This document shows positions 16,136 through 37,883 of a stretch of 64,000 nucleotides of DNA, piece by piece. Under the pieces are notes generated by a model. The model was not told the origin of the DNA. It saw nothing but the letters and a program-made list of their open reading frames with translations, and did not search any database. The DNA is from an uncultured Actinomycetes bacterium (GTDB lineage: Bacteria > Actinomycetota > UBA4738 > HRBIN12), in NCBI GenBank assembly GCA_963734685.1, contig CAVTIC010000006.1, positions 211,320-275,319 of the forward strand, in the 5' to 3' direction. The translations under genes and the position numbers were made by a program. Within the stretch, counting starts at the first letter, position 1, and each line of letters starts with the position of its first letter.

Positions 16136-16379
16136 GCGGTCAGTCTGGCACCCGGTCGCGGAACCATCGACGCCGTGCGAGGGTCTCCTGCACGGAACCC
16201 ATCGCGGAGCGAGCGTGCCACCTCACCGGAGCGACGACGAGCAGGACCCAGGTCTGCCGATCGAGTTCGGCCCGGCCTCCAACGGAGAGTTCGACCCCGA
16301 GCCGCAGCTGCCGGCCGTGCTCCGGGAGACGGTCGCGCGAGCGCGCGCGTGGTCGATCGAGCACTCCGACCGGCTCGGC

Positions 16380-17750: not shown

Positions 17751-17984
17751 CGGTCAGGCGCGAAGCGGGACGGCGGCGAGGTGGCGCTGAGCGACGCGGC
17801 CGTGATCGGACCCTGCGACGACGTGCACGAGCCTGCCGCCACGATCAGGGTGCGCCTGAGGAAGCCGACGTGACTACTCACTCGCACGATCGATCCGGTT
17901 CGCGAGGGTTCCATCTCCTGTGGATTGACCGGCCGAGACGGTCCGGTGAAGCTACGCCAGACGTCGACCAAGGGGGATGCACCG

Positions 17985-19265: not shown

Positions 19266-19374
19266 CCGGCGATACCCATATCGATATCGACCGCGGGCAT
19301 CGCGCCCCGACCCTCGATCGATACCGGGATCGGTATCAGCCCGGGTTCTGTCGATCCATCCGTATGCTCGTGTC

Positions 19375-20425
19375 ATGCAGACGGAACGGCGGCTGACCTC
19401 GTTCAGCCACGGCGCGGGTTGTGGATGCAAGCTCGGGCCGCAGCAACTCAGCGAGGTGCTCGGAACGCTCTCTCTCCCGGGGGTTCCGCCCGAGGTGCTC
19501 GTCGCTGCCGACACCGAGCGACGACGCGGCCGTCTACGCGCTCGAGGACGACCGCGCGCTCGTCGCGACGCTCGACTACTTCACCCCGATCGTCGACGAC
19601 CCCTACGACTGGGGCCGCATCGCGGCCACGAACGCGATGAGCGACGTCTACGCGATGGGTGGCACGCCGTTCCTGGGCCTCAACATCGTGAACTGGCCGA
19701 TCGACGACCTGCCCGCGGAGATGCTCGGCCGCGTGCTGCAGGGAGGCGCCGACGCTGCGGGAGCCGTCGGCGTGCCCGTGCTCGGGGGGCACTCGATCAC
19801 CGACCCCGAGCCGAAGTACGGCATGGTCGTGCTCGGCTTCGTCGATCCGCGCCGCATGCTGCGGAACTCGACCGCGGTGGCCGGCGATTCGCTGGTGCTC
19901 ACGAAGCCGCTCGGCCTCGGCGTGATCTCCACGGCGGTCAAGCGCGGCGTCGCGACCGACGAGATGCTCGCGACCGCCGTCGAGCTGATGACGACCCCGA
20001 ACCGAGCGGCGAGCGAGGCCGTGAACGAGATCGGCGCCGACGCCGCGACCGACGTCACCGGGTTCGGCCTGCTGGGTCACCTCCACCGCATGCTGCTCGC
20101 GAGCGGCGTCGCCGCCGAGATCGACGCGAGCGCCGTGCCCCTGATCGCCGGTGCGCTCGACCTCGCTCGCAGCGGGGTCGTGCCCGGCGGCACGCAGCGG
20201 AACCACGCCTACGTCTCGCCGCACGTCGACTGGGGCGACCTGACCGAGCCCGAGCAGCTCCTGCTCGCGGACGCCCAGACGAGCGGGGGATTGCTCGTCG
20301 CGACCCGGGAACCCGACGCGCTCATCAACGCACTCACCGAGCGAGGTGTCGCCGGCGCCCAGGTCGGTCGCGTTCGCGCCGGAGCAGCGGGCGCCCTGGC
20401 CGTCACCGGCCGGCTCCCGGAATAA
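19375..20425 (+). pseudogene. selD: Selenide, water dikinase (selenophosphate synthetase SelD), apparent +1 frame change near 19505-19520
   Basis: N-terminus MQTERRLTSFSHGAGCGCKLGPQQLSEVL (frame of track ORF 18775) matches E. coli SelD including the GAGCGCK Cys17/Lys20 site. The rest (DDAAVYALEDDRALVATLDYFTPIVDDPYDWGRIAATNAMSDVYAMGG...) is in the frame of ORF 19421..20425. The junction looks like a 2-bp CG deletion (expected ...ADTERDDAAVY). Confidence 0.8.
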
Positions 20426-20507
20426 CCGACCCCACTGGTAGCATTTGCACCTGCAACGGCGGCGGACGACGGCATCCGCGCGCGGCTGCATCCCACGGGA
20501 GCACGGG

Positions 20508-20906
20508 TTGAGCGAGTTGGACGGCGTCTTCTACAAGGAGATCGTGGAGCAGGGGCTCCGCGAGTTCCCGAACGAGTGCTGCGGTGTGATCGCGGCCGCC
20601 GAGGGCGAGCCTGTGAAGGTCTTCCCGATGCGGAACGCCGACGCGAGCCCGGTGACCTACCGTCTCGACGGCAAGGAGCAGATCCGCGTCTTCGGAGAGA
20701 TCGACGATCGGGGTTGGGAGCTCTGGGCGATCTACCACTCGCACACCCATTCCGAGGCGTATCCGAGCGAGACCGACATCCGGCTCGCGTTCTACCCCGA
20801 GGCGCGGTACATCCTGGTGTCACTCGCCGACCGCGACGAACCGGTGATCCGCTCGTTCTTCATCACCGACGGCGAAGTCACCGACGAGGAGCTGACGATC
20901 ACGTGA
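20508..20906 (+). CDS. mec: Mec+ JAMM/MPN+ metalloprotease (CysO-processing hydrolase)
   Basis: JAMM motif HSHTHSEAYPSETD and E-x-CG (NECCGVIAA). TTG start with GGGAG upstream is a guess; the ORF track starts at 20445. Confidence 0.75.
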   Translation: MSELDGVFYKEIVEQGLREFPNECCGVIAAAEGEPVKVFPMRNADASPVTYRLDGKEQIRVFGEIDDRGWELWAIYHSHTHSEAYPSETDIRLAFYPEARYILVSLADRDEPVIRSFFITDGEVTDEELTIT

Positions 20907-21724
20907 CGCCCACGCCGATGTTCAACGAGGACCAGGTGCAGCGATACGCGCGGCACATCATCCTCCCCAACATCGGGGGCAAGGGTCAGCGGAAGCTCCT
21001 CGACAGCTCGGTGCTCGTGATCGGGGCCGGCGGGCTCGGCTCGCCCATCGCGATGTACCTGGCCGCCGCCGGGATCGGCAAGCTCGGCATCGTCGACTTC
21101 GACGCGGTCGACCTGTCGAACCTGCAGCGCCAGATCCTGCACACGAGCGACGACGTCGGCCGCTCGAAGGTCGAGAGCGCGGTCGAGCACTTGCGCGCGA
21201 TCAACCCGACGATCGAGATCGAGGGCCACGACACGCTGCTGTTCTCGACGAACGTGTTCGACGTGTTCGAGGGCTACGACATCATCATCGACGGCACCGA
21301 CAACTTCCCGGTGCGCTACCTCGTGAACGACGCGACGCAGTTCACCGGGAAGCCGCTCGTGTACGGCTCGATCTACCAGTTCGAGGGTCAGGCCACGGTG
21401 TTCATGCCCGGCAAGGAGACGCCCTGCTACCGGTGCCTCTTCCCGTCGCCGCCGCCGCCGGGCACGGTGCCGAGCTGCGCCGAAGGGGGCGTGTTCGGGG
21501 TGCTGCCCGGCGTGATCGGCGCGATCCAGGCGACCGAGGCGATCAAGCTGATCACGGGCGAGGGCGACACGCTCGAGGGACGCCTGCTGCTCTACGACGC
21601 CCTGCACATGGACTTCCAGGAAGTGAAGATCCGCTGGGACGCCGACTGCCCGGTCTGCGGCAAGGAGCCCTCGATCACCGAGCTGATCGACTACGAGGCG
21701 TTCTGCGGCGTGCCCGCCCGCTGA
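20903..21724 (+). CDS. MoeB/ThiF-family E1-like adenylyltransferase (MoeZ-like but lacking a rhodanese domain)
   Basis: VLVIGAGGLGSP nucleotide loop and Zn-binding CYRC...CPVC. GTG overlaps the mec stop (GTGA); alternative ATG at 20918. Confidence 0.85.
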   Translation: MTPTPMFNEDQVQRYARHIILPNIGGKGQRKLLDSSVLVIGAGGLGSPIAMYLAAAGIGKLGIVDFDAVDLSNLQRQILHTSDDVGRSKVESAVEHLRAINPTIEIEGHDTLLFSTNVFDVFEGYDIIIDGTDNFPVRYLVNDATQFTGKPLVYGSIYQFEGQATVFMPGKETPCYRCLFPSPPPPGTVPSCAEGGVFGVLPGVIGAIQATEAIKLITGEGDTLEGRLLLYDALHMDFQEVKIRWDADCPVCGKEPSITELIDYEAFCGVPAR

Positions 21725-21777
21725 GACACTGGTATCGAGGAACGACTTCAGCCCACACGACAGGAGACCGAACGCCG

Positions 21778-22062
21778 ATGGCCGTGACCGTGAAGCTTCC
21801 GACGATCCTGCGCAAGCACGCCGGGGGAGAGGCGAAGGTCGGCGCGGACGGCGCGACGCTCCGCGACGTGCTCACCGACCTCGAGGGCCACTACCCGGGC
21901 ATCACGAAGAACGTGATCTCCGACGACGGCGGCCTGCACCGCTTCATCAACGTCTACGTGAACGACGAGGACGTTCGCTACCTCGGCTCGCTCGAAACGG
22001 AAGTCGTCGACGGCGACACCGTGAGCATCTTGCCGGCGGTCGCCGGCGGCTGCGGCTGCTGA
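21778..22062 (+). CDS. cysO: CysO/ThiS/MoaD-family sulfur carrier with C-terminal ...AVAGG-CGC extension
   Basis: MAVTVKLPTILRKHAGG...FINVYVNDEDVRYLGSLETEVVDGDTVSILPAVAGGCGC* parallels M. tuberculosis CysO (which ends ...AVAGG) plus three extra residues. CAGGAGA RBS. Confidence 0.8.
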   Translation: MAVTVKLPTILRKHAGGEAKVGADGATLRDVLTDLEGHYPGITKNVISDDGGLHRFINVYVNDEDVRYLGSLETEVVDGDTVSILPAVAGGCGC

Positions 22063-22166
22063 ACGCTGGTCTGCCGGCGATCGCATCGAGAGCCACGCCA
22101 CGATCGCGATCAGCACCACTCGCCAGCTCCTGGCATCGTGAGGGATCGCACGGCTACGCTCGCCCG

Positions 22167-22583
22167 ATGATCGAGATCCGCAGGCTCGATCCCGACGACG
22201 TCGACCTCCTCGACGCGGCGGTGCGGGTGCTGAAGGACCGCCCGTCGCCGGCGCCGGAGATGTTCCTGCGCGATCCGCGTGCCCACGCGTTCGTCGCGAT
22301 CGACGACGAGAGAGTCGTCGGGTGCGCGTACGGCTACGAGCTCTTCCGCCCGGACGGCTTCTGGATGATGCTCCTGTACGACCTGGGGGTCGCGGAGCCC
22401 TACCGGAAGCAGGGCCTCGGCCGGGAGCTGCTCGACGCGTTCGTCGAGTTCGCGCGGGGCAAGGGGCATTCGAAGATGTGGCTGTTCACCGATGCCGGCA
22501 ACTCGGCGGCCCGGCGACTGTACGAGGGTGCCGGTGGCGAGCGCGACGACGGGGCGGTCGGCTACTGGTGGGTCTTCGAGTGA
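22167..22583 (+). CDS. GNAT-family N-acetyltransferase
   Basis: Acetyl-CoA motif YRKQGLGRELLDAFVEFARGKG. Confidence 0.8.
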   Translation: MIEIRRLDPDDVDLLDAAVRVLKDRPSPAPEMFLRDPRAHAFVAIDDERVVGCAYGYELFRPDGFWMMLLYDLGVAEPYRKQGLGRELLDAFVEFARGKGHSKMWLFTDAGNSAARRLYEGAGGERDDGAVGYWWVFE

Positions 22584-22643
22584 CCTATTGACCTGCAGGT
22601 CAACCCGGGTCTAGCGTCCGACCCGGAAGGGAGGCGCTTCCCT

Positions 22644-23492
22644 GTGAGGACCCCTACGAGAGGACCGGAGCGTCGGGTGCCTGGCGCGCCGACGGCGTCA
22701 CGTCCGTCGCGCCGTGAGGAAGATCTCATCGTCATCCCCGAGGCTCCGCAGCCGCGGAAGTGGGGCTTGATCGCTGCATCGGTGGCTGCCGGGCTCGCGC
22801 TGGTGCTGGCCCTCGGCCTCGCCGCGGCCTACTGGGGTGAACGTCGAAGCGCCGACGAGCTCGAGGCTCAACTCGAGATCGCGCTCGACGACCAGGCGGC
22901 GCTCACGGGTGCCGCGGCCTCATCACGGGACCGCATCGTCCTGCTCGAGAGCCAGGTGATCGAGATCCAGGAGGAACTCAAGCTGGCCCGTCAAGGGAAG
23001 TCGGTGCTCGCCGCGAGCAAGCGGGAGACACGCGAGCAGCTTCGCCGCTCCCGCGACGAGCTCGAGGTCGAGCGCGCCAGATTCCGCTCGCTCATGGGCC
23101 CGTCGGTCGCCGACGGCACGCACGTCGGCAGGCTGGTGGCGGTCGGCGCCGATCAGACGCCGGTGCGTGTCGTCACCGATCTGGGTCGCTGGTTCACGGG
23201 TCCTGCTGCGACCCAGGCGGCGATCGCAGACGGAGCGATCGCGTCGGGCCACACCATGCCTCGGTACTTCCGCAACGACGACCCGACATGGCGCACTTTG
23301 CCCGTCGACCCGCTCGCGACGGTGACGCTGCTCCGGTGGAACGGCGCCGGCACCTACACGGTCACGCTGGCCGAGCTGCAGCGGCTGTCGGGAGCCGACT
23401 CGAGGCGCGCGGAGGCGGTGTTCCACGACCCGTTCTCGATGGTGGTCGCCGGGGGACAGGTGACGTCGCTCAGGGAGCTGCGCTACCCCTGA
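22644..23492 (+). CDS. Hypothetical membrane-anchored protein with coiled-coil region
   Basis: GTG start after GGAAGGGAGG. TM GLIAASVAAGLALVLALGLAAAY, then a heptad-like region (ELEAQLEIALDDQAAL...LESQVIEIQEELK). Confidence 0.5.
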   Translation: MRTPTRGPERRVPGAPTASRPSRREEDLIVIPEAPQPRKWGLIAASVAAGLALVLALGLAAAYWGERRSADELEAQLEIALDDQAALTGAAASSRDRIVLLESQVIEIQEELKLARQGKSVLAASKRETREQLRRSRDELEVERARFRSLMGPSVADGTHVGRLVAVGADQTPVRVVTDLGRWFTGPAATQAAIADGAIASGHTMPRYFRNDDPTWRTLPVDPLATVTLLRWNGAGTYTVTLAELQRLSGADSRRAEAVFHDPFSMVVAGGQVTSLRELRYP

Positions 23493-24847
23493 TCGTCGAG
23501 CAGCGGGAGCCTCACCTCGAACCGTGCGCCGCCCGTCGGTGCATCGGAGACCGTGACCGTGCCCCGATGCGCATGCACGATCTCGAGCACGATCGCCAGT
23601 CCGAGTCCGGTGCCGCCGGAGTCGCGGTCGCGTGCTTCGTCCAACCGCTCGAACCGCTCGAAGATGCGCTTGCGGTCCCGGGCGGGGATGCCGGCCCCGT
23701 CGTCATCGATCGTGAGGATCACGTCGCCCTCGACCGATTGCAGGGAGACCGTGACCGTCGTCTGGGCGTGCCGGCTGGCGTTGTCCAGGAGGTTGCGCAC
23801 GAGGCGGTCGAGGTGCGCCTCGTCGCCGAGGACCCGTCCCGCCGAGACACCCCTCGTGTCGACTCGCACGTGCGTGTTGGCTGCGCGCAGTCGTGATGCC
23901 TCGGCGAGCACGATGTCGTCGAGGTCGACCTGGGACCGACGGAGCGCCAGCGTGCCCTCGTCTATCCGCGTGAGCAGGAGCAGATCCTCGACCATGCGCT
24001 GCAGGCGCAGGTCTTCGGCGAGCACGACCTCGGCGAGCTCCTGTCCGTCGGTCTGCTCTGGGTGGGCGAGGGCGACCTCGGCATGTTGGCGGATCGCCGC
24101 GATCGGGGACCTGATCTCGTGCGACGCGTCGGAGACGAGACGCCGCTGTCGATCCCGCCCCTCCTCGAGGCGATCGAGCATCGTGTTCATCGTCGTGGCC
24201 AGGTGCGCGATCTCGTCGTCGGCAGGGGGAACCGGCACACGCCGATCGAGGTGATCGCCGGAGATCGTCTGCACCTCGCTGCGGATCGCCTCGACCGGAG
24301 CGAGCGCCCTGCCGACCACGATCCACGTGACCACCGCGACCACCAGCAACAGCATCGGGATGCCGAACGCGATCGGACCGATCACCGCGCTGGTCGTGTC
24401 GGCCACGGGTTCGAGCGTCCGTCCGACCAGGACGGTCTGCTGCCCTTCCGGCAGAGGGACCGCGACCGCGACCACCATGAAAGGTCCGTCCTCGAACGGC
24501 AGACCCTCGATGCGCGTATTCCGGTTGGCCTGAAGATCGACGGCCGGAGCGCTGCCCTTCATGTTCGCCGTTGAGGCGACGACCCGACCGGTCGGATCGA
24601 TGACCTGGACGAACTCCTCGTCCGCGTCGCCCGACTCGATCACGTCAGAGGACTCATCGTCCATGATCGTGTCGGCGATGGTCTCGGCCGTGAGTTGGGC
24701 TGCGTCCCGGATGTTATCGGTGAGCGAACGGCGAAGCTGCCAGACCATGCCGGCGCTCGCGATGACCAGGGCCGCGCCTACCACGAGCACGGCAGCGACG
24801 GTGGTGCGGACGCGGACCCCCGCCATCAACTGACGCAGTCGCATCAT
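23483..24847 (-). CDS. Two-component sensor histidine kinase (TM-periplasmic loop-TM-HAMP-HisKA-HATPase_c)
   Basis: H-box LVSDASHEIRSPIAAI, N/G boxes (DRLVRNLLDNASRHA, DDGAGIP, GGTGLGLAIV). Start MMRLRQL at 24847 with GGAG RBS, 13 nt after the response-regulator stop. Confidence 0.9.
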   Translation of the reverse strand: MMRLRQLMAGVRVRTTVAAVLVVGAALVIASAGMVWQLRRSLTDNIRDAAQLTAETIADTIMDDESSDVIESGDADEEFVQVIDPTGRVVASTANMKGSAPAVDLQANRNTRIEGLPFEDGPFMVVAVAVPLPEGQQTVLVGRTLEPVADTTSAVIGPIAFGIPMLLLVVAVVTWIVVGRALAPVEAIRSEVQTISGDHLDRRVPVPPADDEIAHLATTMNTMLDRLEEGRDRQRRLVSDASHEIRSPIAAIRQHAEVALAHPEQTDGQELAEVVLAEDLRLQRMVEDLLLLTRIDEGTLALRRSQVDLDDIVLAEASRLRAANTHVRVDTRGVSAGRVLGDEAHLDRLVRNLLDNASRHAQTTVTVSLQSVEGDVILTIDDDGAGIPARDRKRIFERFERLDEARDRDSGGTGLGLAIVLEIVHAHRGTVTVSDAPTGGARFEVRLPLLDDQG

Positions 24848-24860
24848 CGGCCTGCTCCGG

Positions 24861-25535
24861 TCACTCGTCGTCGGCCAGACGATAGCCTGCCCCACGCACC
24901 GTCTGCAGGGTATCTCGACCGAACGGGCGATCGATCTTGTTCCGAAGGTGACCCACGTACACCTCGACGATGTTGACGTCGCCTTCGAAGTCGTAGTCCC
25001 AGACGTGGGAGAGGATCTCGGACTTCGAGATCACGGCGCCTGGGTGCCGCATCAGGTACTCGAGGATCGAAGCCTCCCTGGCCGTGAGCTCGATCTCGTC
25101 GTCCCCACGAGATGTCCGACGGCCCCCCGGGTCGAACCGCAGATCCCCCACCTCCAGGATCGCGGGACGGGCCGGCGCCCCTCGTCGGATCAACGCGCGC
25201 AGGTGCGCCAGCAGCACCACGTAGGAGAACGGCTTCGTGAGGTAGTCGTCGGCGCCGATATCGAGCGCCTCCGCCTGATCGCGCTCGCCTTCCTTCGCGG
25301 TCAGCATGAGGATCGGCGTCCAGATCTCCTCTTCCCGGAGGGCCGCGCACACCTCGAAGCCGTTCAGGCCCGGAAGCATGATGTCGAGCACGATCGCATC
25401 GTACGGCTGCTCGCGAGCCATCCAGAGACCGTCGGTCCCCGTCAGGGCGACGTCGGTCGCGAAGCCCTCGGCCTCGAGCCCGCGCTTGAGGCCGGCGGCC
25501 AGCCGTTGCTCGTCTTCGACCACGAGGAGTCGCAT
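24861..25535 (-). CDS. OmpR/PhoB-family response regulator
   Basis: Receiver MRLLVVEDE...DAIVLDIMLPG...LMLTAK, and winged-helix tail VRGAGYRL. Confidence 0.9.
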   Translation of the reverse strand: MRLLVVEDEQRLAAGLKRGLEAEGFATDVALTGTDGLWMAREQPYDAIVLDIMLPGLNGFEVCAALREEEIWTPILMLTAKEGERDQAEALDIGADDYLTKPFSYVVLLAHLRALIRRGAPARPAILEVGDLRFDPGGRRTSRGDDEIELTAREASILEYLMRHPGAVISKSEILSHVWDYDFEGDVNIVEVYVGHLRNKIDRPFGRDTLQTVRGAGYRLADDE

Positions 25536-25553
25536 AGGGAGAAGTATGCCGCT

Positions 25554-25571
25554 CTTCAGCTGAACTTCAGC
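25554..25571. promoter_or_regulatory. Direct repeat CTTCAGC-TGAA-CTTCAGC (11-bp periodicity), candidate OmpR-family RR box
   Basis: Read directly in the 385-nt divergent region between the RR gene and the first RND gene. Assignment is speculative. Confidence 0.3.
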
Positions 25572-25919
25572 AACGATGTGGCAGGCTGCACCTCAACAAG
25601 GGGTCTCGGGCGCACCCGCGACTCCTGGTGGTGTACGGCTAAGGAGCTTTCTCTCCAAATAGGCCGAATGATGTACGTCTAGGGGTTGCGCAAACGTCAC
25701 ACCTGGGCGTACGGTCCGCCCATGCGCGCATCCGCCATCCAGGGGGGGCCGAATGACCGAGTGGGTTCGCACCTCGGCGTAGGGCTCCTGCCCTCCCTCA
25801 ATCGTGGCTTCCTCCCGAACGACATGCGCCGTCTCGTCCGACACGCCCGCAGCAGGTTGGAGCCCGTCTCGCCAATGCCCAGGGGTCCCCCTGGACCGAC
25901 TCGTGGAGGTCGCAGAACC

Positions 25920-28900
25920 ATGATGCGGTGGATCATCGGATCGAGCATCAAGTTCCGTCGCTTGGTGATCGCTGTCGCCGTCGGGTGCCTCGTCTACGGC
26001 GTCCTGCAGCTCGACAACGCCCGGACGGACATCCTGCCGGAGTTCCAGCGGCCGACCGTCGAGGTGCAGACCGAGGCTCTCGGGCTCTCCGCGGAGGAGG
26101 TCGAGGAGCTGATCACGGTGCCCCTCGAGCAGGACCTGCTCGTGGGGATCGCGTTCCTCGACGAGATCGAGTCGGTCTCGCTGCCCGGGCTCTCGTCGGT
26201 GGTCATGACGTTCGAGCCGGGAACGGACGTGCTCGACGCGCGCCAGGTCGTCGCCGAGCGCCTGACCCAGGCGGTCGCGGCCGCCGGGCTGCCGCAGGTC
26301 GCGAAGCCGCCACAGATGATCCAGCCGCTCTCCTCCACCAGCCGCGTCGCGATGGTGAAGCTGTCCTCCGACGAGCTGACGCCGATCGAGATGTCGCATC
26401 CTGTCCCGCTGGGTGATCACTCCGCGCCTGCTCGGCGTCGAGGGCGTCGCCAACGTCTCGACCTGGGGATTCCGTGACCGGCAGCTCCAGGTGCTGGTCG
26501 ACCCGCAGCGGCTCAACGACGCGGGCGTCACGCTCAACCAGGTGATCCAGACCACCGGGAACGCGCTCGAGGTGTCCCCGCTCACGTTCCTCGAGGCCTC
26601 CTCGCCCGGCACCGGCGGCTTCATCGACACGTTGAACCAGCGGCTCCACATCTTCCACGAGCAGGCGATCTCGACGCCCGCAGAGCTCGGCCCAGGTGCC
26701 GATCGAGGATCCGCAGGGCGACGCGGCGACGTCCGGTGGTTCGGCGCCAACGCTGGGCGACGTCACCGACGTCGTCGAGGATCATCAGCCGCTGATCGGC
26801 GACGCGCTCTGCACCGGCGGCGACTGCCTGCTGCTCGTGGTCGAGAAGTTCCCGGACGCCAACACGCCGGAGGTGGCCGACGGGATCGACGCGGCGCTCG
26901 ACGAGCTCGCGCCCGGACTCCCCGGGCTGGCAGATGGACACCTCGATCTACCGCCCGGCCGAGTTCATCGACACGTCCTTCGACAACCTCGGGCGCGCGG
27001 CCCTGATCGGCTGCGATCCTGCTGATCCTCGTGCTGGGAGCGTTCGCCTTCGAGTGGCGCAGCGCCCTGGTCGGCACGGTGGCGATCGCGATGTCGCTCG
27101 CCGCCGCCTGGCTGGTCCTCTACTTCACGGACACCACCGTGAACACGATGATCCTGGCGGGCCTGGTCATGGCGCTCGTCGCGCTGATCGACGACGCGGT
27201 CATCGACGTCGGCAACGTGGCTGCAGCGCGTCCGACAGCATCGCTGCGCAGGGTGACGGTACCCCCGCCTGGCAGGTCGTGATCGAGGCGACGCTCGAGA
27301 TGCGCAGCGCGATCCTGTTCGCGACGCTGATCGTCGGGCGGTCCTCCTGCCCGCGTTCTTCATGGAGGGGGAGGCGGGCGCTTTCCTGCCGGCGATCGCT
27401 ACCGCGTACCTGCTGGCGATCGTGGCTTCGATCGTGGTCGCCGTGACCGTCACGCCCGCGCTCGGCATGATGCTCCTGGGCAACACGACCCGAGAGCGTC
27501 GCGAGTCGCCGGTGGCGCGCTGGCTGCGTCGGCGCTACGACGGGCTCGGCCTCGCGGATCGTGCCCAAGCCCGGCCCGGCGTTCGCCGTCTTCGGCCTCT
27601 TCGCCGTCGCCGGCCTGCGTGGCGTTGCCGTTCCTCGACCAGTCGATGCGCCCCGTCCTCAAGGAGCGCGACGTGGTGGTGAAGCTGGATGCCCCGCCCG
27701 GCACGTCGCTCCAGCGCATGGACGAGATCACGGCGCAGGCCGTCGAGGAGCTGCGATCGCTGCCCGGGGTCGACGACGTGGGCGCGCACGTCGGCCGCGC
27801 CGTGCAGTCGGACCAGATCGTCAACGTGAACTCCGCCGAGGTGTGGGTCAGCATCGACCCCTCCGCCGACTACGACGACACGATCGCCGCGATCGAGTCG
27901 GTCGGCCGGCGGGCTCCCCGACGTCTCGAGACGACGTGCTGACCTACTCCGAGCAGCGGGTCACCGACGTCCTGGGCAGAGGGGACGACGAGATCGTCGT
28001 GCGGCTCTACGGCCAGGACCAGCAGATCCTCGAGACCAAGGCCGAGGAGGTGCGCGCAGCGATCGCGGGATCGACGGGCTCGAGAACGCTGCAGGTCGAG
28101 CTTCCGCCGACGAGCCGACGATCGAGGTGCAGCCGGACATCGCCCGCGCCGAGCAGTACGGTCTCGCGCCGGGCGACGTGCGCCGCGCCGCGACGACGCT
28201 CCTCTCGGGCCTCGTCGTCGGGAACCTGTTCGAGGAACAGAAGGTGTTCGACGTCGCGGTGTGGGGAACCGAGGAGATCCGCCAGAGCGAAACCGACGTC
28301 GAGAGCCTGCTGATCGACACGCCGGACGGGGGACTCGTGCGCCCTCGGCGACGTCGCCGACGTGCGCATCGTGCCGAACGCGGCGGCGATCCGGCACGAG
28401 TCGGTCGAGTCGTACGTCGACGTCGGCGGCCGAACGTCTCCGGCCGGGACGTCGGCGCCGTCGCGGGCGACGTCGAGCAGGCGCTCGAGCAGGTCACGTT
28501 CCCGCTCGAGCACCACGCGCAGGTCCTCGGGGGCTTCGAGGAGGACGCGGCGGCGCGCTCGCGCGTGATCGCCGTCGCGGTGGCGGCGCTGATCGTGATC
28601 TTCCTGCTGCTCCAGGCCGCGTTCGCGAGCTGGCGACTCGCGGCGCTCGCCTTCGTCGGTCCTGCCGATGGCGCTCGCCGGCGGCGTGGTGGCGGCGCTG
28701 ATCGCGGGCGGCGACATCACGCTCGGCTCCGTGGCCGGGTTCGTCGCCGTGCTCGCGCTCGCGGCCCGTAGCGTCGTCGTCCTCATCCGGCACTACCAGC
28801 AGCTGCAGCGCGAGGGCGAGGCGTTCGGCGCCGACCTCGTGATCCGAGGGACCAGGGAACGGCTCGTGCCGATCCTGACGTCCGCGCTGGGGTCGGCCGT

Positions 28901-29131
28901 CGTCTTCATCCCGTTCGCCTGAGCAGCGGTGCCGGCCGGGTTCGAGATCGTCGGGCCGATGGCCATCGTGATCCTGGGCGGACTGGTCACGACGACGCTG
29001 CTGACCTCGTCGTGGTCCCCGCGATCTACCTGCGGTTCGGCTTCGTCGCCGAACCGGACACGTCGGCCGAGGATCTGTTCGTCAAGGTTCCCGACGATCG
29101 ACACGGTCCGGAGGGTAGGTGGGACCGATGA
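25920..29131 (+). pseudogene. CusA/CzcA-like efflux RND transporter permease, copy 1, broken by at least 10 frame changes
   Basis: N-terminus MMRWIIGSSIKFRRLVIAVAVG...PEFQRPTVEVQTEALGLSAEEVEELITVPLEQ is HME-RND-like. The protein continues across track ORFs 26413, 26696, 26934, 27031, 27362, 27619, 27561, 28127, 28668 and 28929, each in a different frame. Several junctions sit at C/G homopolymers (for example gtcccgctgg ~26410, ggcccagg ~26700). The stop overlaps the next ATG. Confidence 0.8.
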
Positions 29132-29561
29132 AGCGCAGCCTCCTTGCGATCGCCGTGATCCCCGTCGCCGCCTTGATCCTGACGGCCTGCGGCGGAACGG
29201 TGTCGGACGAGTACGAGATCGAAGAGCAGCCCTACACCCTGGAGCCGATCGAGGGTGAGGACGTGCTCCGCGTCACCCTGACCGAATCGGCAGTGGAGCA
29301 CATCGGCATCGAGACGGTGCCGGTCGAGACAGCGCGGCTCGAGGTTGGTCGTGCCCTACGACGCGGTGTACATCGACTCCCACGGTGGGCTTCTGGGTCT
29401 ACACGAACCCCGAGCCGCTCGTGTACGTTCGAGCCCCGATCGACATCGTCCGCGAGACGTCGACCGAGGCGTTCCTCGCCGACGGGCCGCCCGCCGGAAC
29501 CCAGGTCGTGACGGTCGGGGCCCCGGAGCTGTACGGAACCGAGACGGAGTTCGGTACGTAG
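29128..29561 (+). pseudogene. Small efflux-associated lipoprotein (periplasmic adaptor-like), frameshifted
   Basis: MKRSLLAIAVIPVAALILTAC lipobox; the body is spread over three frames (..ARLEV / VVPYDAVYIDSHGG / WVYTNPEPLVYVRAPIDIVRETSTEAFLADGPPAGTQVVTVGAPELYGTETEFGT*). Confidence 0.5.
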
Positions 29562-29589
29562 GCGTGATCACGGAAGGAAGGAACGCGCG

Positions 29590-32500
29590 ATGCTTCGCTG
29601 GATCGTCGGGTCGAGCCTCAAGTTCCGATACCTCGTGGTCGCGCTCGCCGCCGCGCTGATGTTCTTCGGCGTGCAGCAGCTCCGCCACACCGCGGTCGAC
29701 GTCTTCCCCGAGTTCGCGCCGCCGAAGGTCGAGGTCCAGACGCCGTCCCTGGGGCTGTCCGCGAACCAGGTCGAGTCGCTGGTCACGATCCCGCTCGAGC
29801 AGACGCTCAACGGGGTCCCCGGCCTCGACGAGATCCGCTCGAAGTCGGTGGAGTCGCTGTCGTCGATCGAGATGATCTTCAAGCCCGGCACCGATCTGCT
29901 CACCGCTCGGCAGCACGTCGCGGAGCGCATCGCCCAGATCTCGCCGCAGCTCCCGACCTGGGCGAGCCCTCCCTTCATGATCCAGCCCCTGTCCGCGACG
30001 AGCCGCGTCATGAAGATCGGGCTCACGACGACCGACCCAGACTTGGACCTGATCGACCTGTCGATGACGACCTACTGGAAGATCAGGACCCGTCTGATGC
30101 GGGTGCCGGGCGTCGCGAACGTGCCGATCTGGGGCGAGCGGATCGAGATGCCCACGATCCAGATCGATCCGAAGCGGCTCCGCGAGCACAACGTCACGGT
30201 CGACGCCGTCTCGACGGCCGTGGCGGACGCCCTGGACGCGGGGCTGCTCCAGTACTCCGACGGCAACTACATCGGGCGCGGCGGCTTCATCGACACCGCC
30301 GACCAACCGCTACCAGGTCCGGCACGTCCTGCCGATCGTGGAGGCCGCGGACCTGGCCGAGATCCCGGTCGAGTCGGCCGACGGCAAGAAGCTCGAGCAT
30401 CGAGGACGTGGCGAACCTCGAGCGAGGCACCTGGCCGCTGGTGGGTGACGCCGTCATCAACGACGGCCAGGGCCTGATGCTCATCGTCGAGAAGCTGCCC
30501 TGGGCGAACACCCTGGACGTGACGCGCGGGGTCGAGGCGGCGCTGGAGGAGCTCAAGCCCGGCCTGTCCGGCATCGCGATCGACGCGACGATCTTCCGCC
30601 CGGCGACCTTCATCGAGGAGTCGATCAGCAACCTCTCCAAGGCCATCTGGTTCGGGGCGATCCTGATGGTCCTGATGCTCTGCCTGTTCCTCTACAGCTG
30701 GCGCACCGCCGTGATCAGCGTGGTGGCGATCCCGCTGTCGCTGATCGCGGCCGGTCTCGTCCTGCACTGGCGCGGGGCGACGATCAACACGATGATCCTG
30801 GCCGGCATGGTGATCGCCCTCGGCGACATCGTCGACGACGCGATCATCGACATCGAGAACGTGGTCCGACGTCTGCGGCAGCGTCGCCGGCGAGGGCGGC
30901 GGCGCGTCGACCGCCAGGATCATCCTCGACGCCTCGCTCGAGGTTCGAAGCGCGATCGTGTACGCGACGCTGATCGAGATCGTCGCCGTCGCGCCGATCT
31001 TCATGCTCGAGGGACTGTCCGGGTCGTTCTTCCGGCCGCTCGCCACGTCGTACGCGCTCGCGTTGCTCGCGTCGATGGTCGTCGCGCTGACGGTGACCCC
31101 GGCGATGAGCCTGATCTTCTTCAGGAAGCCGTCCTCCCTGCAGCACCGCGAGTCGCCGGTCGTCCCCGCCCTCCAGCGCGGGTACCACTTCGTCCTCGAG
31201 AGGATCGTCCGACGGCCTCGTCGCGCGTACGCGGCGGTCGGCCTCGCGACGGTGATGGGCGTCGCGGCCCTGCCGCTGCTCGGCCAATCGCTCCTGCCCT
31301 CCTTCAAGGAGCGCGACTTCCTGATGCACTGGCTGACGGTGCCCGGCACCGGGCCAGCCGGAGATGTTCCGGATCTCCGCTCGGGCCAACCACGAGCTGC
31401 TGGAGATCCCCGGGGTCAGGAACGCCGGGTCGCACATCGGGCAGGCGCTGCTGATGGACGAGGTCGTCGGGATCGACTTCGGCGAGAACTGGATCAGCGT
31501 CGACCCGTCCGTCGACTACGACGAGACCCTCGCGAAGATCCAGGAGGTCGTCGACGGCTACCCGGGCCTGTACCGCGACGTGCTGACCTACCTGAAGGAG
31601 CGGATCCGGGAGGTCCTGACGGGCTCGAGCGAGGCCATCACGATCCGGATCTACGGGCAGGACCTGGCTCAGCTGCAGGAGACGGCCGACGAGATCAACG
31701 AGATCGTCGGGAGCATCCCCGGCGTGACGAGGACCACGTCGAGTCCCTCAAGGACATCCCCCAGGTCAGCGTCGAGGTCGATCTCGGCGCAGCGCAGCGC
31801 TACGGGCTCAAGCCCGGCGACGTCCGCCGGGCCGCCGCCCGGCTGCTCGCAGGTGAGGAGGCCGGCGACATCTTCCGGGAGGCAAGGCCTACGACATCCA
31901 GGTCTGGAGCACGCCCGAGACCCGTGACACCTACAGCGACATCGGGAACCTGCTGATCGACACGCCCAGCGGCAAGTACGTCCACCTGAAGGACGTGGCG
32001 ACGGTGACGATCGAGCCCGTTCCCAACGTCATCTATCACGACAACCTGTTCAGGAGCCTCGACGTCGGCGCCAACATCGACGGCAGCCGGGACCTCGGCT
32101 CGATCGTGGGCGAGCTCGAGAATCGCCTCGAGACTACGACTGGCCGGCCGAGTACCACGCCGAGTTCCTCGGTGAGTACACGGAGCGGCGAGAGGCCGCG
32201 AACCGGTTGAACGTCGGCGCGATCGCGGCGGCCATCGGGATCTTCCTGCTGCTGCAGGCGTCGTTCGGCAGCTGGCGGCTCGCCACGCTCTCGTTCCTGA
32301 CCCTGCCGATCGCGCTGATCGGTGGCGTGATCGCGGCGTACCTCACCGGTGGAGTCATCTCGCTCGGATCGCTCGTCGGGTTCTTCACGGTGCTGGGGAT
32401 CGTCGCGCGGAACGGGATCATGCTGATCAGCCACTACCAGCATCTCGAGCGGTTCGAGGGCGTTCCCTTCGGCCCGGAGCTGGTCCTGCAGGGAGCCCGT

Positions 32501-32740
32501 GAGCGGGTCGTACCGATCATGATGACGGTCCTGACGACCGGGCTCGCCCTCGTGCCGCTGCTCATCGCGGGGGAGATCCCCGGCCAGGAGATCGAGTATC
32601 CGATGGCCTGGGTCATCCTCGGCGGGCTCATCACGGCGACGTTGCTGAACCTGTTCGTCGTGCCATCGTTGTACCTGCGGTTCGCGAAGAAGGGTGGCCA
32701 GGCCGGAACGCCGATGCCTGCGGCTCCGGTGCCCGCGTAA
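29590..32740 (+). pseudogene. CusA/CzcA-like efflux RND transporter permease, copy 2 (about 50% identical to copy 1 over the first 160 aa), broken by at least 6 frame changes
   Basis: [40 protein letters not shown]... through GGFIDTADQ, then continues in ORFs 30408, 30958, 31364, other unlisted frames, and 32207 (C-terminus ...[37 protein letters not shown]). Confidence 0.8.
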
Positions 32741-32750
32741 GGAGACGAAG

Positions 32751-33728
32751 GTGACGGAGGCACGCTTCCCCAGGTGGGTGCCGCGTGCGGGAGCACGGCG
32801 AGTGCCCGCGGCGATGCGCAGGTGCCTCGCTCCCCTCGTGTGCGTGGCCGTGCTCGGTGCGTGCAGCCAGGGCGGGTCGGGGTCGACGACCCCGGCCCCC
32901 TCGGGCACCGCCCAGGCGGCCCCGTCGCCGACGACGACCAGTCCGGAGCCGCACGTGGACGTCAAGGCGAGCGACTTCGACCCCGCCAACTTCGATCCCT
33001 CGACCGCCGTCGACAACCGGTGGTTCCCTCTGACCCCCGGGACCCAGTTCGTCTATCGCGGGTCGTCGCTCGAGGATGGCGAACGTCTCACGCACAAGGT
33101 GGTCTTCACGGTCAGCGACATGACCAAGGAAGTCGCCGGTGTTCGCGTGGTCGTGATCTGGGACCGCGACTACACGGAAGGCGAGCTCGTGGAAGCCGAG
33201 GTCGCGTTCTTCGCTCAGGACCGCGACGGGAACGTGTGGCACCTGGGGCAATATCCCGAGGAGTACGAGGCAGGGAAGCTCGTCAAGTCTCCCGGCTGGG
33301 TCGCGGGCGAGGAAGGCTCGAAGGCGGGCATCGCGATGAAGGCCGAGCCGAAGCTGGGCGCACCGGATTATTCTCAGGGGTACTCGCCACCACCGATCAA
33401 CTGGATCGATCGAGCGCGGACGTACGAGATAGGTGCCAAGACGTGCGTGCCGGTCGACTGCTACGAGGATGTGCTCATCACTGAGGAGTTCGAGCGATCG
33501 AAGCCGGGAGCGTTCCAGCTCAAGTACTACGCGCCGGGAGTGGGCAACGTCCGTGTCGGGTGGCGAGGTAAGAACGAGGAAGAGCGAGAGGAGCTCGTGC
33601 TGATCGAGTATCGCCGACTCGACGGAGCGCAGATGGAGATGGTCCGCGAGGCCGTGCTCGCGCTCGACCGGAACGCTTTCGAGCGGATCCCGGCCTACGC
33701 TTCGACATCGCCTGCCGAAGCCTCGTGA
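32751..33728 (+). CDS. Lipoprotein, uncharacterized family (paralog A)
   Basis: Lipobox VAVLGAC (GTG 32751 after AAGGAGA; alternative ATG 32814). Conserved blocks DNRWFPLTPGTQFVY, GNVWHLGQYPEEYEAG, GAKTCVPVDCYEDV, ALDRNA shared with paralogs at 33774 and 54119. Confidence 0.65.
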   Translation: MTEARFPRWVPRAGARRVPAAMRRCLAPLVCVAVLGACSQGGSGSTTPAPSGTAQAAPSPTTTSPEPHVDVKASDFDPANFDPSTAVDNRWFPLTPGTQFVYRGSSLEDGERLTHKVVFTVSDMTKEVAGVRVVVIWDRDYTEGELVEAEVAFFAQDRDGNVWHLGQYPEEYEAGKLVKSPGWVAGEEGSKAGIAMKAEPKLGAPDYSQGYSPPPINWIDRARTYEIGAKTCVPVDCYEDVLITEEFERSKPGAFQLKYYAPGVGNVRVGWRGKNEEEREELVLIEYRRLDGAQMEMVREAVLALDRNAFERIPAYASTSPAEAS

Positions 33729-33773
33729 GGTCCAACCTTCTGACACGCTGAAGTGTTGGGGGGTCGGACGGAG

Positions 33774-34487
33774 ATGCGGCGTGGACGGAGATGCTGGGCC
33801 CTGATGAGCTTGGTCGTGCTCGCGTCCGCATCGTGCTCCCGCCCGGAGAGCTTCGAGGATCTCATGGACATCGGCGTCTGCGATCCGGCCACCGCGGAGT
33901 TCACGCTCCAGATCGACAATCCGTTCTTCCCGTTGCCGGTTGGGCGCCAGATCGTGCTGGAGGGGTCGGAGTTCTTCTTCACCGACGTGCTCGTCCGGAT
34001 CACCGTCCTCGACGATGTGGAGACGGTGGCCGGGGTGGAGACCCGGGTCGTCGAGGAGTACGAGGCCAAGGACGGACAGGTGGTCGAGGTCTCCCGGAAC
34101 TACTTCGCACAGACTGCCGACGGCACCGTGTGCTACTTCGGGGAAGAGGTCGACATCTACGACGGCGACGGGAACGTCACATCGCACGGCGGAGCCTGGC
34201 GCGCCGACGGGACGACGAACATCCCGGGCATCTTCATGCCCTCCGATCTGGAGGTGGACCAGGCCTTCCCACAGGAGATCGCGCCGGGCGTCGCGGAGGA
34301 CCAAGCGAAGGTGATCGCCCTCGGCGAGGTCGTGGAGGTGCCCGCCGGCACGTTCGACGACACGGCCGCGCTGCTCGACCGCAACCCCCTCGACGGCAGC
34401 GAGGATGAGAAGGTCTACGCCTCCGGCGTGGGCCTGATCGTCGACGGATCCGCTCGGATGACGGGGTTCACGCCGGGTGGAGGATAG
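33774..34487 (+). CDS. Lipoprotein, same uncharacterized family (paralog B)
   Basis: Signal MRRGRRCWALMSLVVLASASC. Shares DNPFFPLPVGRQIVLEGS and GTVCYFGEEVDIYDG blocks with paralog A. Confidence 0.65.
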   Translation: MRRGRRCWALMSLVVLASASCSRPESFEDLMDIGVCDPATAEFTLQIDNPFFPLPVGRQIVLEGSEFFFTDVLVRITVLDDVETVAGVETRVVEEYEAKDGQVVEVSRNYFAQTADGTVCYFGEEVDIYDGDGNVTSHGGAWRADGTTNIPGIFMPSDLEVDQAFPQEIAPGVAEDQAKVIALGEVVEVPAGTFDDTAALLDRNPLDGSEDEKVYASGVGLIVDGSARMTGFTPGGG

Positions 34488-34533: not shown

Positions 34534-35490
34534 ATGAGTGACTGGGATAATCCGGGCGTGCGGTACGACGACATCCTGGAGGCGATCGGCAACACGCCGC
34601 TCGTCGGTATGCCCCGGATGTCGCCGAACCCTCGGGTGCGGCTGTGGGCGAAGCTCGAGGGCTCGAATCCGACGGGGTCCACGAAGGACCGCATCGCCTT
34701 GAGGATGATCGAGACGGCGGAAGCGAGCGGCGAGCTCACGTCGGCCAAGACGATCCTCGAGCCCACATCGGGGAACACGGGCATCGCGCTCGCCATGGTG
34801 GCGGCGCGCAAGGGGTACGGGCTCACGGTGGTCATCCCCGACAATGCGAGCGAGGAGCGCATCGGCCTGCTTCGTCTGTTCGGCGCCGAGATCGTGTTCA
34901 GCGACGGCGAGAAGGGCACGAACGGATCGATCGAGGTGGCGCGCGCGCTCGCCCAGGACGAGAAGTACTTCATGCCGTTCCAGTACGGGAACCCGGCGAA
35001 CCCGTTGGCGCACCAAGAAGGCACCGCGCAGGAGATCATCCGCGACCTGCCCGAGGTGACTCATTTCGTGGCCGGCATGGGCACCGGTGGCACGCTCACC
35101 GGCAACGGCCGCGGCCTGCATGCCCACAACCCCGACGTCAGGATCATCGCGGCCGAACCGGAGCTCGGCGACCTCGTCTACGGTCTGCGCTCACTCGACG
35201 CGGGGTTCATCCCACCGATCTTCGATCCGAGCGAGATCGATCGGAAGTTCCTCGTCGACTCGTCCAGCTCGCTGCGAACGAACCGCGAGCTCACCTCGAC
35301 CGAGGGCATCTTCGCCGGCATCTCGAGCGGCGCCGTGGTCTACGTGGCGCAGCGCATCGCGAGCGAGATCGACCACGGCGACATCGTGTGCCTGCTGCCC
35401 GACGGCGGGTGGAAGTACCTATCGACGGAGGCCTGGGCGGAGGACCTCGCGACGGCCGAGAAGGGCGTCGCGGAGTCGCTCTGGTGGTGA
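34534..35490 (+). CDS. cysM: CysO-dependent cysteine synthase CysM (O-phosphoserine sulfhydrylase, PLP-dependent)
   Basis: Near-collinear with M. tuberculosis CysM: RLWAKLEGSNPTGSTKDR, ILEPTSGNTGIALA, GNPANP, TEGIFAGISSGAVV, DGGWKYLS. Confidence 0.85.
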   Translation: MSDWDNPGVRYDDILEAIGNTPLVGMPRMSPNPRVRLWAKLEGSNPTGSTKDRIALRMIETAEASGELTSAKTILEPTSGNTGIALAMVAARKGYGLTVVIPDNASEERIGLLRLFGAEIVFSDGEKGTNGSIEVARALAQDEKYFMPFQYGNPANPLAHQEGTAQEIIRDLPEVTHFVAGMGTGGTLTGNGRGLHAHNPDVRIIAAEPELGDLVYGLRSLDAGFIPPIFDPSEIDRKFLVDSSSSLRTNRELTSTEGIFAGISSGAVVYVAQRIASEIDHGDIVCLLPDGGWKYLSTEAWAEDLATAEKGVAESLWW

Positions 35491-35553
35491 GCGCGCTGGG
35501 GTCGTGCACGTGGCGGTGAGCGCCCCGGCCTCGTGCACCGTGGTGGCGAGCAG

Positions 35554-36381
35554 ATGAGCGATCCGCGGCCGATCGGGGTCTTCGACTCCGGGGTCGGAGG
35601 CCTCACGGTCGTGCGAGCCATCATGGATCAGCTGCCGCACGAGCCCATCCTCTACGTGGGTGACACGGCTCGGTTCCCGTACGGCCCGAAGCCCGTCGAC
35701 CTGATCCGGCGTTACGCCCTGGGGATCGCCGACTACCTCGTGCACCGCGACGTGAAGATGCTCGTGGTCGCCTGCAACTCAATCGAGGTGAGCGCCATCG
35801 ATGACATCGCCACCCGTGCAGGGATCCCGGTCGTCGGCGTGATCGACCCCGGCACGCGCGCGGCGGTCCGCTCGACGCGCAACGGGATGATCGGCTTGAT
35901 CGGCACCGAGGCGACGGTGACGAGCGGTGCGTACGACCGAGCCCTGTCGGCGACGGGCGCTGCGGTGACGCTGCGATCTCAGCCCTGCCCCAGCTTCGTC
36001 GAACACGTCGAACGAGGGGACACGACGAGTCCCACGCTCAGGGCGGCCGCGCGCGGGTATCTTTCCCCGCTGATGGCCGAGGGCATCGACACGCTGATCC
36101 TGGGGTGCACCCACTACCCGCTGCTGTCGGGTCTGCTGCAGCTCGAGCTCGGGCCGGGCGTCGTGCTCGTTTCGTCGGCGGAGGAGACGGCCAAGGACGT
36201 GTATGCGACCCTGCTCGCCGACGACCTGCTCCAGGACGACGGATCGCCCGCCGGTCACGAGTTCCTCGCGACCGGTGATCCGCACGCATTCGAGCGCGTC
36301 GCCACCGTATTCCTCGGGCCCGAGCTGACCGACGTCGGCGCCGCACAGGCGCAACCGGTGGGGGGTGGCACGTGGAGCTGA
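35554..36381 (+). CDS. murI: Glutamate racemase
   Basis: IGVFDSGVGGLTV, FPYGPKP, VVACNS, LILGCTHYPLL. Confidence 0.9.
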   Translation: MSDPRPIGVFDSGVGGLTVVRAIMDQLPHEPILYVGDTARFPYGPKPVDLIRRYALGIADYLVHRDVKMLVVACNSIEVSAIDDIATRAGIPVVGVIDPGTRAAVRSTRNGMIGLIGTEATVTSGAYDRALSATGAAVTLRSQPCPSFVEHVERGDTTSPTLRAAARGYLSPLMAEGIDTLILGCTHYPLLSGLLQLELGPGVVLVSSAEETAKDVYATLLADDLLQDDGSPAGHEFLATGDPHAFERVATVFLGPELTDVGAAQAQPVGGGTWS

Positions 36382-37124: not shown

Positions 37125-37146
37125 TGACGGTGACGGAGATCGTCCC

Positions 37147-37875: not shown

Positions 37876-37883
37876 GATCGCCG

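Follow-up and report, generated by a model that had tools for sequence, protein, structure and literature searches.

A stretch of 64,000 nt from an uncultured Actinomycetes bacterium (assembly GCA_963734685.1, contig CAVTIC010000006.1, positions 211,320 to 275,319; hereafter "the window") carries four genes in a row on the plus strand, namely selD, encoding selenide, water dikinase, followed by genes for a JAMM metalloprotease, an E1 adenylyltransferase, and a ThiS-like sulfur carrier (Table 1). An original prediction, made by a model from the letters of the sequence, had named these genes and their spacing, i.e. 82 nt between selD and the JAMM gene, a 4-nt overlap in which the GTG start of the E1 gene and the JAMM stop codon share the letters GTGA, and 53 nt between the E1 and carrier genes; coordinates and family scans bear out all of this. 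As judged by sequence comparison, the locus is a mec-cysO-cysM pathway of the Mycobacterium tuberculosis type in which an E1 gene has been inserted between mec and cysO. This assignment follows from the nearest relatives of the carrier and of CysM, from the synteny around cysM, and from the position of cysM directly after the carrier gene in related loci. Below, we describe this module, the frame break in selD, and the junction between the two, and ask whether selenium and sulfur metabolism are coupled here.

The CysO module and its cysteine synthase

The JAMM protein matches Prok-JAB (PF14464) with 76.6 bits, and both the catalytic glutamate (PNECCG) and the HSHTHSEAYPSETD zinc motif (HxHx7Sx2D) are visible in its translation. 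It is 77-88% identical in relatives, where its gene always lies directly ahead of the E1 gene. In the E1, ThiF (PF00899, 285 bits) is the sole Pfam domain, the translation showing the GxGxxG motif (GAGGLGS) and two CxxC zinc motifs (CYRC and CPVC), and the best solved relative is E. coli MoeB (1JW9). The carrier matches ThiS (PF02597) with 61 bits; its closest solved structures are CysO of A. orientalis (4N6E_B, E 1.9e-30) and CysO of M. tuberculosis (3DWG_C, E 1.2e-29), and MoaD and SAMP entries reach 1e-9 or weaker.

The claim of a "complete" CysO module stands for the JAMM protease, E1, and carrier, but not for the acceptor enzyme, which lies outside the cluster, 12.4 kb downstream of the carrier gene, where the earlier reader had not located it. 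Its product, a pyridoxal phosphate (PLP) enzyme, matches PALP (PF00291) with 240 bits and the cysKM model TIGR01136 with 335 bits, slightly below the cutoff of 344. The best solved relative is M. tuberculosis CysM (3DWG/3DKI, E 5e-97, 328 bits), the next cysteine synthase scoring 235 bits, and by these matches the enzyme is assigned as CysM of the O-phosphoserine sulfhydrylase type and PLP fold-type II. Thus, the triad was rightly called CysO-type, with a carrier nearest to those of A. orientalis and M. tuberculosis and a downstream PLP enzyme nearest to M. tuberculosis CysM. In at least nine relatives (L002, L003, L095, L100, L104, L107-L109, and L164), cysM is found only 30-90 nt 3' of the carrier gene. 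Downstream of it, murI, a metallo-beta-lactamase-fold (MBL) gene, rph, and rdgB follow in the window and, in the same order, in L002, L004, and L164, a series which we take to correspond to Rv1338-Rv1341 on the M. tuberculosis H37Rv map. The intervening 12.4-kb block is missing in L002, L100, L108, and L164 and partly shared by L081 and L082. It comprises a GNAT gene (22167-22583), a hypothetical gene (22644-23492), a histidine kinase and a response regulator on the minus strand (23483-25535), two broken RND transporter genes (~25.9-31.2 kb), and other, unannotated open reading frames (ORFs).

The carrier protein ends in AVAGG-CGC, and since CGC follows, its Gly-Gly is internal until trimmed. 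Relative to L082, the tail of the window carrier is a GGCTGC duplication. Across the clade of loci that share selD and the module (delimited below), the tails after Gly-Gly read C, S, R, SGR, QG, or CGC or are lacking, this last in about half of the clade, and they show no conservation. Such variable tails imply that the JAMM protease takes part in carrier maturation too, as in the HcyS/QbsE systems, and by analogy the protease would trim the carrier tail and hydrolyse the carrier-cysteine adduct.

selD and its frame break

After removal of one extra A, which is the condition for its family scores to be valid, SelD reaches 386 bits on TIGR00476 (cutoff 125) and 379 bits on NF002098 (cutoff 299), and both the AIRS (PF00586) and AIRS_C (PF02769) domains are matched. 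The repaired protein is 88-90% identical to the intact homologues P0001-P0004; its glycine-rich loop with the catalytic Cys and Lys reads SHGAGCGCKL (residues 11-20), all invariant residues of the family alignment are retained, and the gene contains no second lesion. With the family cutoffs passed and the Cys/Lys site present, the view that this is a bona fide SelD is upheld.

In the sequence as given, however, the reading frame is interrupted. The frame from 19375 runs into ...ADTE|RRRGRL, and the +1 frame continues with DDAAVYAL... up to 20425. This frame change had been recognized before, and is real, but it had been ascribed to a 2-bp deletion in a CG repeat, whereas alignments with homologues identify a single inserted A at 19517 as the lesion, because protein and DNA of the relatives lack that base. 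Six related DNAs (L081, L082, L001, L002, L004, and L003) read ACCG-GCGACGAC where the window reads ACCG-A-GCGACGAC; ADTG-DDAAVY occurs in 19/19 aligned homologues with 71-90% identity, and deletion of the A exactly restores ADTGDDAAVYAL, the motif of all 19. The extra base sits outside any repeat or homopolymer. The repair proposed earlier, ADTERDDAAVYAL, was rejected, as it adds a residue found in no homologue.

To place this lesion in context, we compared ~30 kb of coding sequence that the window shares with twelve related loci. Relative to these, one frame break is found in selD and at least seven in one RND gene (25.9-28.7 kb), and none in the rest. When the first 1.6 kb of the RND gene was aligned base by base to L082, six of seven indels turned out to be single-base insertions in the window, none of them in a homopolymer, and hence lesions of the same kind as in selD (+1 nt, non-homopolymer). 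The closest relatives, L081 and L082, come from ENA assemblies whose contigs bear Flye-style names (contig_N), and they carry breaks of their own in otherwise conserved genes: in L081, the E1 gene is one nucleotide too long (+1 nt) and the carrier gene one too short (-1 nt), and in L082, two extra nucleotides (+2 nt) lie in the 5' part of selD. Because each sibling assembly breaks different conserved genes and insertions dominate, a consensus error fits better than gene decay, and the extra A most likely reflects a consensus or assembly error and not the death of the gene. As to the transporters themselves, two RND (AcrB-family) genes (25900-28700 and 29500-31200) are shattered by frame breaks, the first by at least seven, which may mean either that the consensus is poor in this region or that an accessory gene is decaying.

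It is possible, albeit clearly less probable, that selD is a real and very recent pseudogene, produced by a genuine 1-nt insertion next to an intact CysO module. Long-read errors concentrate in homopolymers, and the extra A is not in one; furthermore, breaks are distributed as expected if particular genes decay, with ~30 kb clean and at least seven in a single RND gene, and lineage-specific insertions in the window speak for genome flux. Yet, a dying gene would have to be reconciled with the lack of any further lesion or lost invariant SelD residue, with a break of the very kind seen in the RND cluster, and with the predominance of insertions, as typical bacterial gene decay favours deletions. 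Moreover, the E1, carrier, and selD genes of the sibling contigs have random single-base breaks of their own. A programmed +1 ribosomal frameshift yielding intact SelD from the sequence as written, to which only the otherwise intact halves and the +1 direction of the needed shift would point, is effectively refuted, since the extra base occurs in no relative, at least 25 intact orthologues exist without the insertion, the site offers neither a stop nor an obvious slippery or hungry codon with the zero frame open to 20511, and neither structure nor conservation argues for a programmed shift.

SelD of the window is the Cys form. In six other members of the clade, an in-frame TGA occupies the active-site Cys codon (GAG-U-ACK; L003:3826, L097:8528, L103:905, L104:3548, L108:194, and L109:6793), and 28 nt downstream of it lies an 8-bp hairpin, two pairs of which are kept via compensatory changes. 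The hairpin is probably a bacterial SECIS-like (selenocysteine insertion sequence) element, and these six SelDs probably contain selenocysteine (Sec). TGA-bearing members must then decode Sec, so SelD would have its normal role there. A tRNA-Sec was found neither in the window nor in 27 related loci, an Rfam scan of the window yielding one tRNA-Leu only. Likewise, selA, selB, and selU were absent among the Pfam-annotated neighbours of the clade loci and among ten ORFs upstream of selD (which include fabI, a pfkB kinase, adenosine deaminase, malic enzyme, and an ABC ATPase), and other selenium-related genes were absent among 40 window ORFs scanned. Within 10 kb of selD, in the window and the clade loci examined, we found no selA/selB/selC, selU, yqeB/yqeC, senA/senB, or NADH-oxidoreductase fusion. 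In an out-group actinobacterial metagenome-assembled genome (L006:2637-5120), selD is located inside an 828-codon open frame, which points to a partner of ~480 aa fused at its N terminus; this may be the known oxidoreductase-SelD fusion.

Adjacency, rhodanese loss, and the selD-JAMM junction

How far selD and the module belong together was assessed in both directions. In the forward test, 80 species-representative selD loci were examined with flanks of up to 10 kb; only in the four closest (L001-L004, SelD identities of 59-73%) do genes for a JAMM protease, an E1, and a carrier lie nearby, and the other 76 have none of them within 10 kb. The reverse test, a metagenome scan with the window E1, returned 80 loci; the 27 with E1 identities of 68-93% all have the order JAMM-E1-carrier, and selD is found upstream on the same strand in every one of the 19 that extend far enough upstream. 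These 19, together with the window, L001-L004, L081, L082, and L163-L165, constitute 29 informative clade loci. All 29 have selD upstream (SelD identities 54-90%), separated from the JAMM gene by 30-240 nt in 22 and by other genes in seven. By contrast, selD was not found in the DNA available at 52 loci with the next-closest E1 genes. All SelDs next to the module group together as one clade in a neighbour-joining tree, and because this clade is monophyletic, the adjacency represents one evolutionary event, presumably in the ancestor of one uncultured Actinomycetota lineage; independent lineages with the same arrangement, as one might expect of an operon, did not emerge. A merely sporadic adjacency had been put forward as an argument against a functional link; within this lineage the adjacency is not sporadic (29/29 loci), and the link is not refuted thereby.

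The 273-aa E1 lacks a rhodanese domain, as predicted. It covers just positions 11-275 of the 392-position MoeZ model NF005902, and as its stop codon is only 53 nt from the carrier gene, there is no room for a further domain; going by its sequence, it should be filed as MoeB-like and not as MoeZ. All 26 complete E1s of the clade stop 0-24 aa past the E1 domain, whereas 48 of 50 complete next-closest E1s (61-66% identity) carry 113-125 aa more, an extension that is a Pfam Rhodanese domain in both of the two scanned. Thus, the comparison that had been suggested came out in favour of the expected pattern, in that E1s neighbouring selD are devoid of rhodanese, and the closest ones outside the clade carry the extension and have no selD nearby. 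A stand-alone rhodanese gave no tblastn match in the window or in 33 clade loci. One further locus, L157, combines a rhodanese-less E1 beside cysM with no selD. On the sequences compared, rhodanese loss, relocation of the E1 gene, and arrival of selD coincide in one lineage, but the weight of this threefold coincidence is limited because only one clade is concerned. It is common for E1s without rhodanese, among them MoeB and ThiF of E. coli, to receive their sulfur from proteins whose genes lie elsewhere.

The JAMM-E1-carrier core is uninterrupted in at least 30 loci, while the junctions on either side of it, selD|JAMM and carrier|cysM, both take insertions. At the selD|JAMM junction, these comprise an opposite-strand methyltransferase gene in L001, L081, and L082 (L082 with a sigma factor and a beta-propeller protein in addition), an opposite-strand pfkB kinase gene in L092 and apparently also in L091 and L093, a 511-aa ORF in L089, and a VapBC-like toxin-antitoxin pair in L103 (L103:1966-2615). 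The latter, judged by eye from the translations, consists of a ribbon-helix-helix antitoxin and a PIN-like ORF. Since the carrier|cysM junction is equally permissive, such insertions alone do not disprove a functional link.

Right before the JAMM gene lies an element of ~37 nt, consisting of GGAATA, 17 nt, and CAT, with the core CTGGTAGCATTTGCACCTGCAAC. It is present in all 29 aligned loci and moves with the JAMM gene where the selD junction has insertions; in the window it was found once (0.06 expected), its -35-like GGAAT box overlapping the selD stop codon. A -10 reading GTT occurs in some relatives only. In M. tuberculosis, mec-cysO-cysM has a SigH promoter, GGAAYR-N17-18-GTT, within 100 bp of mec (PMC4803200, PMC8280819). 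The element of the window resembles promoters of this SigH/SigR type, and we infer a promoter role for it; most likely, the JAMM-E1-carrier unit has a stress-type promoter of its own in the 82-nt spacer. The strict SigH pattern GGAAT-N17-19-GTT has no match in the spacer, its sole match in the window being inside the lon gene. Scans of 19200-22300 for sigma-70 promoters and terminators gave nothing useful and no plus-strand terminator-like site, and the spacer between selD and the JAMM gene folds no more stably than shuffled sequences (z = 0.74). The proposal that all four genes form one operon is doubtful: shared strand, short gaps, and the lack of a terminator agree with it, but the junction between selD and the JAMM gene does not, given the inserts in seven of 29 loci, several of them on the opposite strand, and the promoter-like element at the JAMM gene. 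On the other side of selD, a TATGCT/TATCCT box 6 nt upstream of its ATG is found at the same distance in the alignment of L082, L001, L002, and L003 and is a possible -10 element of a leaderless or short-leader selD transcript.

Upstream of selD, the neighbourhood is variable. A 446-aa ORF directly upstream (17925-19265, plus strand) has a strong coding signal and no Pfam or NCBIfam match; its position is taken by an RNase II-like (RNB) gene in L081 and L082 and by a DUF294 gene in L001, L002, and L004. This cNMP-binding/CBS/DUF294 nucleotidyltransferase gene (12723-14696, minus strand in the window) abuts selD divergently in L001, L002, L004, and L163, and in the window ~4.7 kb (14700-19370) are inserted there, with a PGA_cap remnant, a pfkB kinase, an amidohydrolase, and the 446-aa ORF. 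Unrelated to the locus, the window also encodes a 1019-aa protein (55210-58269, plus strand) that combines an adenylate/guanylate cyclase domain with a STAND/NB-ARC-type NTPase.

Table 1. Position and character of the features at the selD-CysO locus, in window coordinates.
Feature	Position	Strand	Remarks
selD (selenide, water dikinase)	19375..20425	+	ATG at 19375, stop ends at 20425; Cys-type active site SHGAGCGCKL; frame broken after codon 47
Extra A shifting the selD frame	19517..19517	+	Alignment to relatives
TATGCT box, possible -10 element	19363..19368	+	Conserved in alignment of L082, L001, L002, L003
Promoter-like element in selD-JAMM spacer	20419..20455	+	Conserved upstream of JAMM gene in clade loci
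JAMM/MPN+ metalloprotease, Mec+ counterpart, 132 aa	20508..20906	+	Prok-JAB match; TTG start
E1 adenylyltransferase of MoeB/MoeZ type, without rhodanese, 273 aa	20903..21724	+	ThiF match
CysO-like sulfur carrier of ThiS/MoaD family, 94 aa	21778..22062	+	ThiS match; Gly-Gly at codons 90-91
Cys-Gly-Cys tail of carrier	22051-22059	+	Read from translation
12.4-kb block between carrier gene and cysM	22063..34461	.	Absent from several relatives
cysM, cysteine synthase of O-phosphoserine-sulfhydrylase type	34552..35490	+	PALP match; expected acceptor enzyme for carrier thiocarboxylate
murI, metallo-beta-lactamase-fold gene, rph, rdgB	35551..38489	+	Asp_Glu_race, Lactamase_B_2, RNase_PH, Ham1p_like matches

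Sulfur, selenium, and known systems

Taken together, we favour, with moderate confidence, a CysO/CysM system with its own rhodanese-less E1 and stress-type promoter, situated beside a canonical selD that was captured once and whose frame break is probably an assembly indel. In this Mec-CysO-CysM route to cysteine, with the E1 gene embedded between the JAMM and carrier genes, the JAMM protease would trim the Cys-Gly-Cys tail and expose Gly-Gly, the E1 would adenylate the carrier, and a sulfur donor encoded elsewhere would convert it into the thiocarboxylate. CysM would then join the carrier thiocarboxylate to O-phosphoserine, and the JAMM protease would release cysteine. selD, captured once upstream, would simply have been carried along in a conserved housekeeping backbone, fabI ... 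selD-mec-E1-cysO-cysM-murI-rph-rdgB. Four parts of this scheme are inferred, namely that the JAMM protease trims the tail, that sulfur comes from an external donor, that the conserved element acts as a promoter, and that the extra A is an artefact.

Several observations weigh against it. The extra A is located outside a homopolymer, and frame breaks are unevenly spread over the window. The E1s lost their rhodanese domain exactly in the clade in which selD is adjacent, and this adjacency is conserved as well as the functional one of carrier and cysM and better than the position of the DUF294 gene upstream of selD. Furthermore, the canonical GTT -10 is missing from the element of the window, and co-transcription with selD is plausible because 22 of 29 loci are co-directional at 30-240 nt and the spacer has no terminator-like site.

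An alternative is a real coupling of selenium and sulfur, in which SelD works with the rhodanese-less E1, CysO, and CysM of this lineage. In one version, selenophosphate or selenide attacks the acyl-adenylate of the carrier to form a selenocarboxylate, from which CysM makes free selenocysteine or a protected selenium store; in another, by analogy with the chemistry of SepSecS and SelA, CysM would use selenophosphate directly on O-phosphoserine. Such a coupling would make sense of the same-strand selD upstream in 29/29 clade loci despite SelD identities as low as 54% (54-90%), of the 30-240 nt gap in 22 of them, and of the loss from the clade E1s of a rhodanese domain retained by 48 of their 50 nearest relatives, with no rhodanese gene nearby. 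Insertions at the selD junction do not by themselves disprove it, as the known partners carrier and cysM are also split. Chemically, selenide is a substrate for cysteine synthases, and free chalcogenide reacts in vitro with the adenylates of carriers. Nevertheless, we regard the coupling as unlikely. Owing to the single origin, the three features that coincide amount to no more than one event. E1s without rhodanese are normally served by proteins encoded elsewhere, and L157 has such an E1 beside cysM without selD. Moreover, the JAMM gene is preceded by an independent promoter-like element, opposite-strand genes stand between it and selD in several lineages, and SelD itself is canonical in sequence, some members probably being Sec enzymes with a SECIS-like hairpin. 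The literature search likewise found no paper tying selD to cysO, mec, or moeB and no description of selD beside mec, E1/moeB, cysO, or cysM, and two surveys (PMC2432076 and PMC5029168) and a preprint (10.1101/2022.04.13.486033) make no mention of JAMM, E1, ThiS, or cysteine synthase neighbours. Still less probable, and in our opinion quite doubtful, is the specific proposal that CysO was re-plumbed for selenium after rhodanese loss, with SelD (through selenophosphate) or selenide loading the carrier as a selenocarboxylate or serving CysM directly.

If such re-plumbing were true, the lineage would have a pathway dedicated to making free selenocysteine or to carrying selenium in protected form, and thereby a further SelD-dependent selenium-use trait. 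If only the CysO/CysM system beside a captured selD applies, the locus is mostly housekeeping, and the gain lies in a corrected annotation (selD probably intact, with one inserted base), the placement of cysM, and the record of a CysO pathway that differs in gene order, has a rhodanese-less E1 of its own, and uses carriers with tails. The three coincident changes in a deep uncultured actinobacterial lineage, i.e. E1 gene into the operon, rhodanese lost, and selD upstream, are a matter on which we found no paper. In addition, the five small soluble proteins of this locus would allow one to test, concretely and cheaply, if selenium is ever handled by chalcogen carriers that are protein-bound.

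Among known systems, the locus most resembles Mec+ (Rv1334), CysO (Rv1335), and CysM (Rv1336) of M. tuberculosis, served by MoeZ (Rv3206c). The M. tuberculosis carrier and CysM are among the closest solved relatives of the window proteins, and both systems have a JAMM gene upstream of the carrier gene and a cysM followed by murI, MBL gene, rph, and rdgB. Unlike in M. tuberculosis, a rhodanese-less E1 lies between the JAMM and carrier genes of the window, the carrier bears a CGC tail, cysM is displaced by 12.4 kb, and selD, which to our knowledge M. tuberculosis does not possess, stands upstream. The GGAA-type promoter-like box just upstream of the JAMM gene is a further likeness, comparable to the SigH promoter of mec (PMC4803200, PMC8280819). 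The cysM-JAMM-cysO-moeZ clusters of other bacteria (L111-L161) likewise unite all four families, and their E1s have 61-66% identity to that of the window, but the order is CysM-JAMM-CysO-E1, 48 of 50 complete E1s end in an extension of ~113-125 aa, which is a rhodanese domain in the two scanned, and selD is absent from the available DNA.

JAMM, E1, and ThiS-like triads are also known as HcyS/HcyD/HcyF in Wolinella succinogenes and QbsE/QbsD/QbsC in Pseudomonas fluorescens, where they feed homocysteine/methionine or thioquinolobactin synthesis, respectively. Their carriers are made with extra residues past Gly-Gly, which the JAMM protease removes before adenylation. The tails of the window clade (CGC, C, S, R, SGR, and QG) would imply the same trimming step; in contrast to the Hcy and Qbs systems, the acceptor here is a CysM-type cysteine synthase, and the tails are variable and absent in about half of the clade. 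A rhodanese-less E1 of ~270 aa and a beta-grasp carrier are likewise found in archaeal SAMP1/UbaA/HvJAMM1 and in Thermus TtuB/TtuC. The window carrier passes the SAMP1 model (62.7 against a cutoff of 60); however, the E1, with 360 bits on the UbaA model, falls short of the cutoff of 450, the JAMM protein with 65.6 falls short of its cutoff of 130, and the partner is cysM instead of genes for tRNA thiolation or conjugation. With respect to the known partnerships of selD, with selA/selB/selC, selU (ybbB), yqeB/yqeC, senA/senB, or as NADH-oxidoreductase fusions, the likeness lies in SelD itself, which is canonical in sequence and in some members of the clade probably a Sec enzyme.

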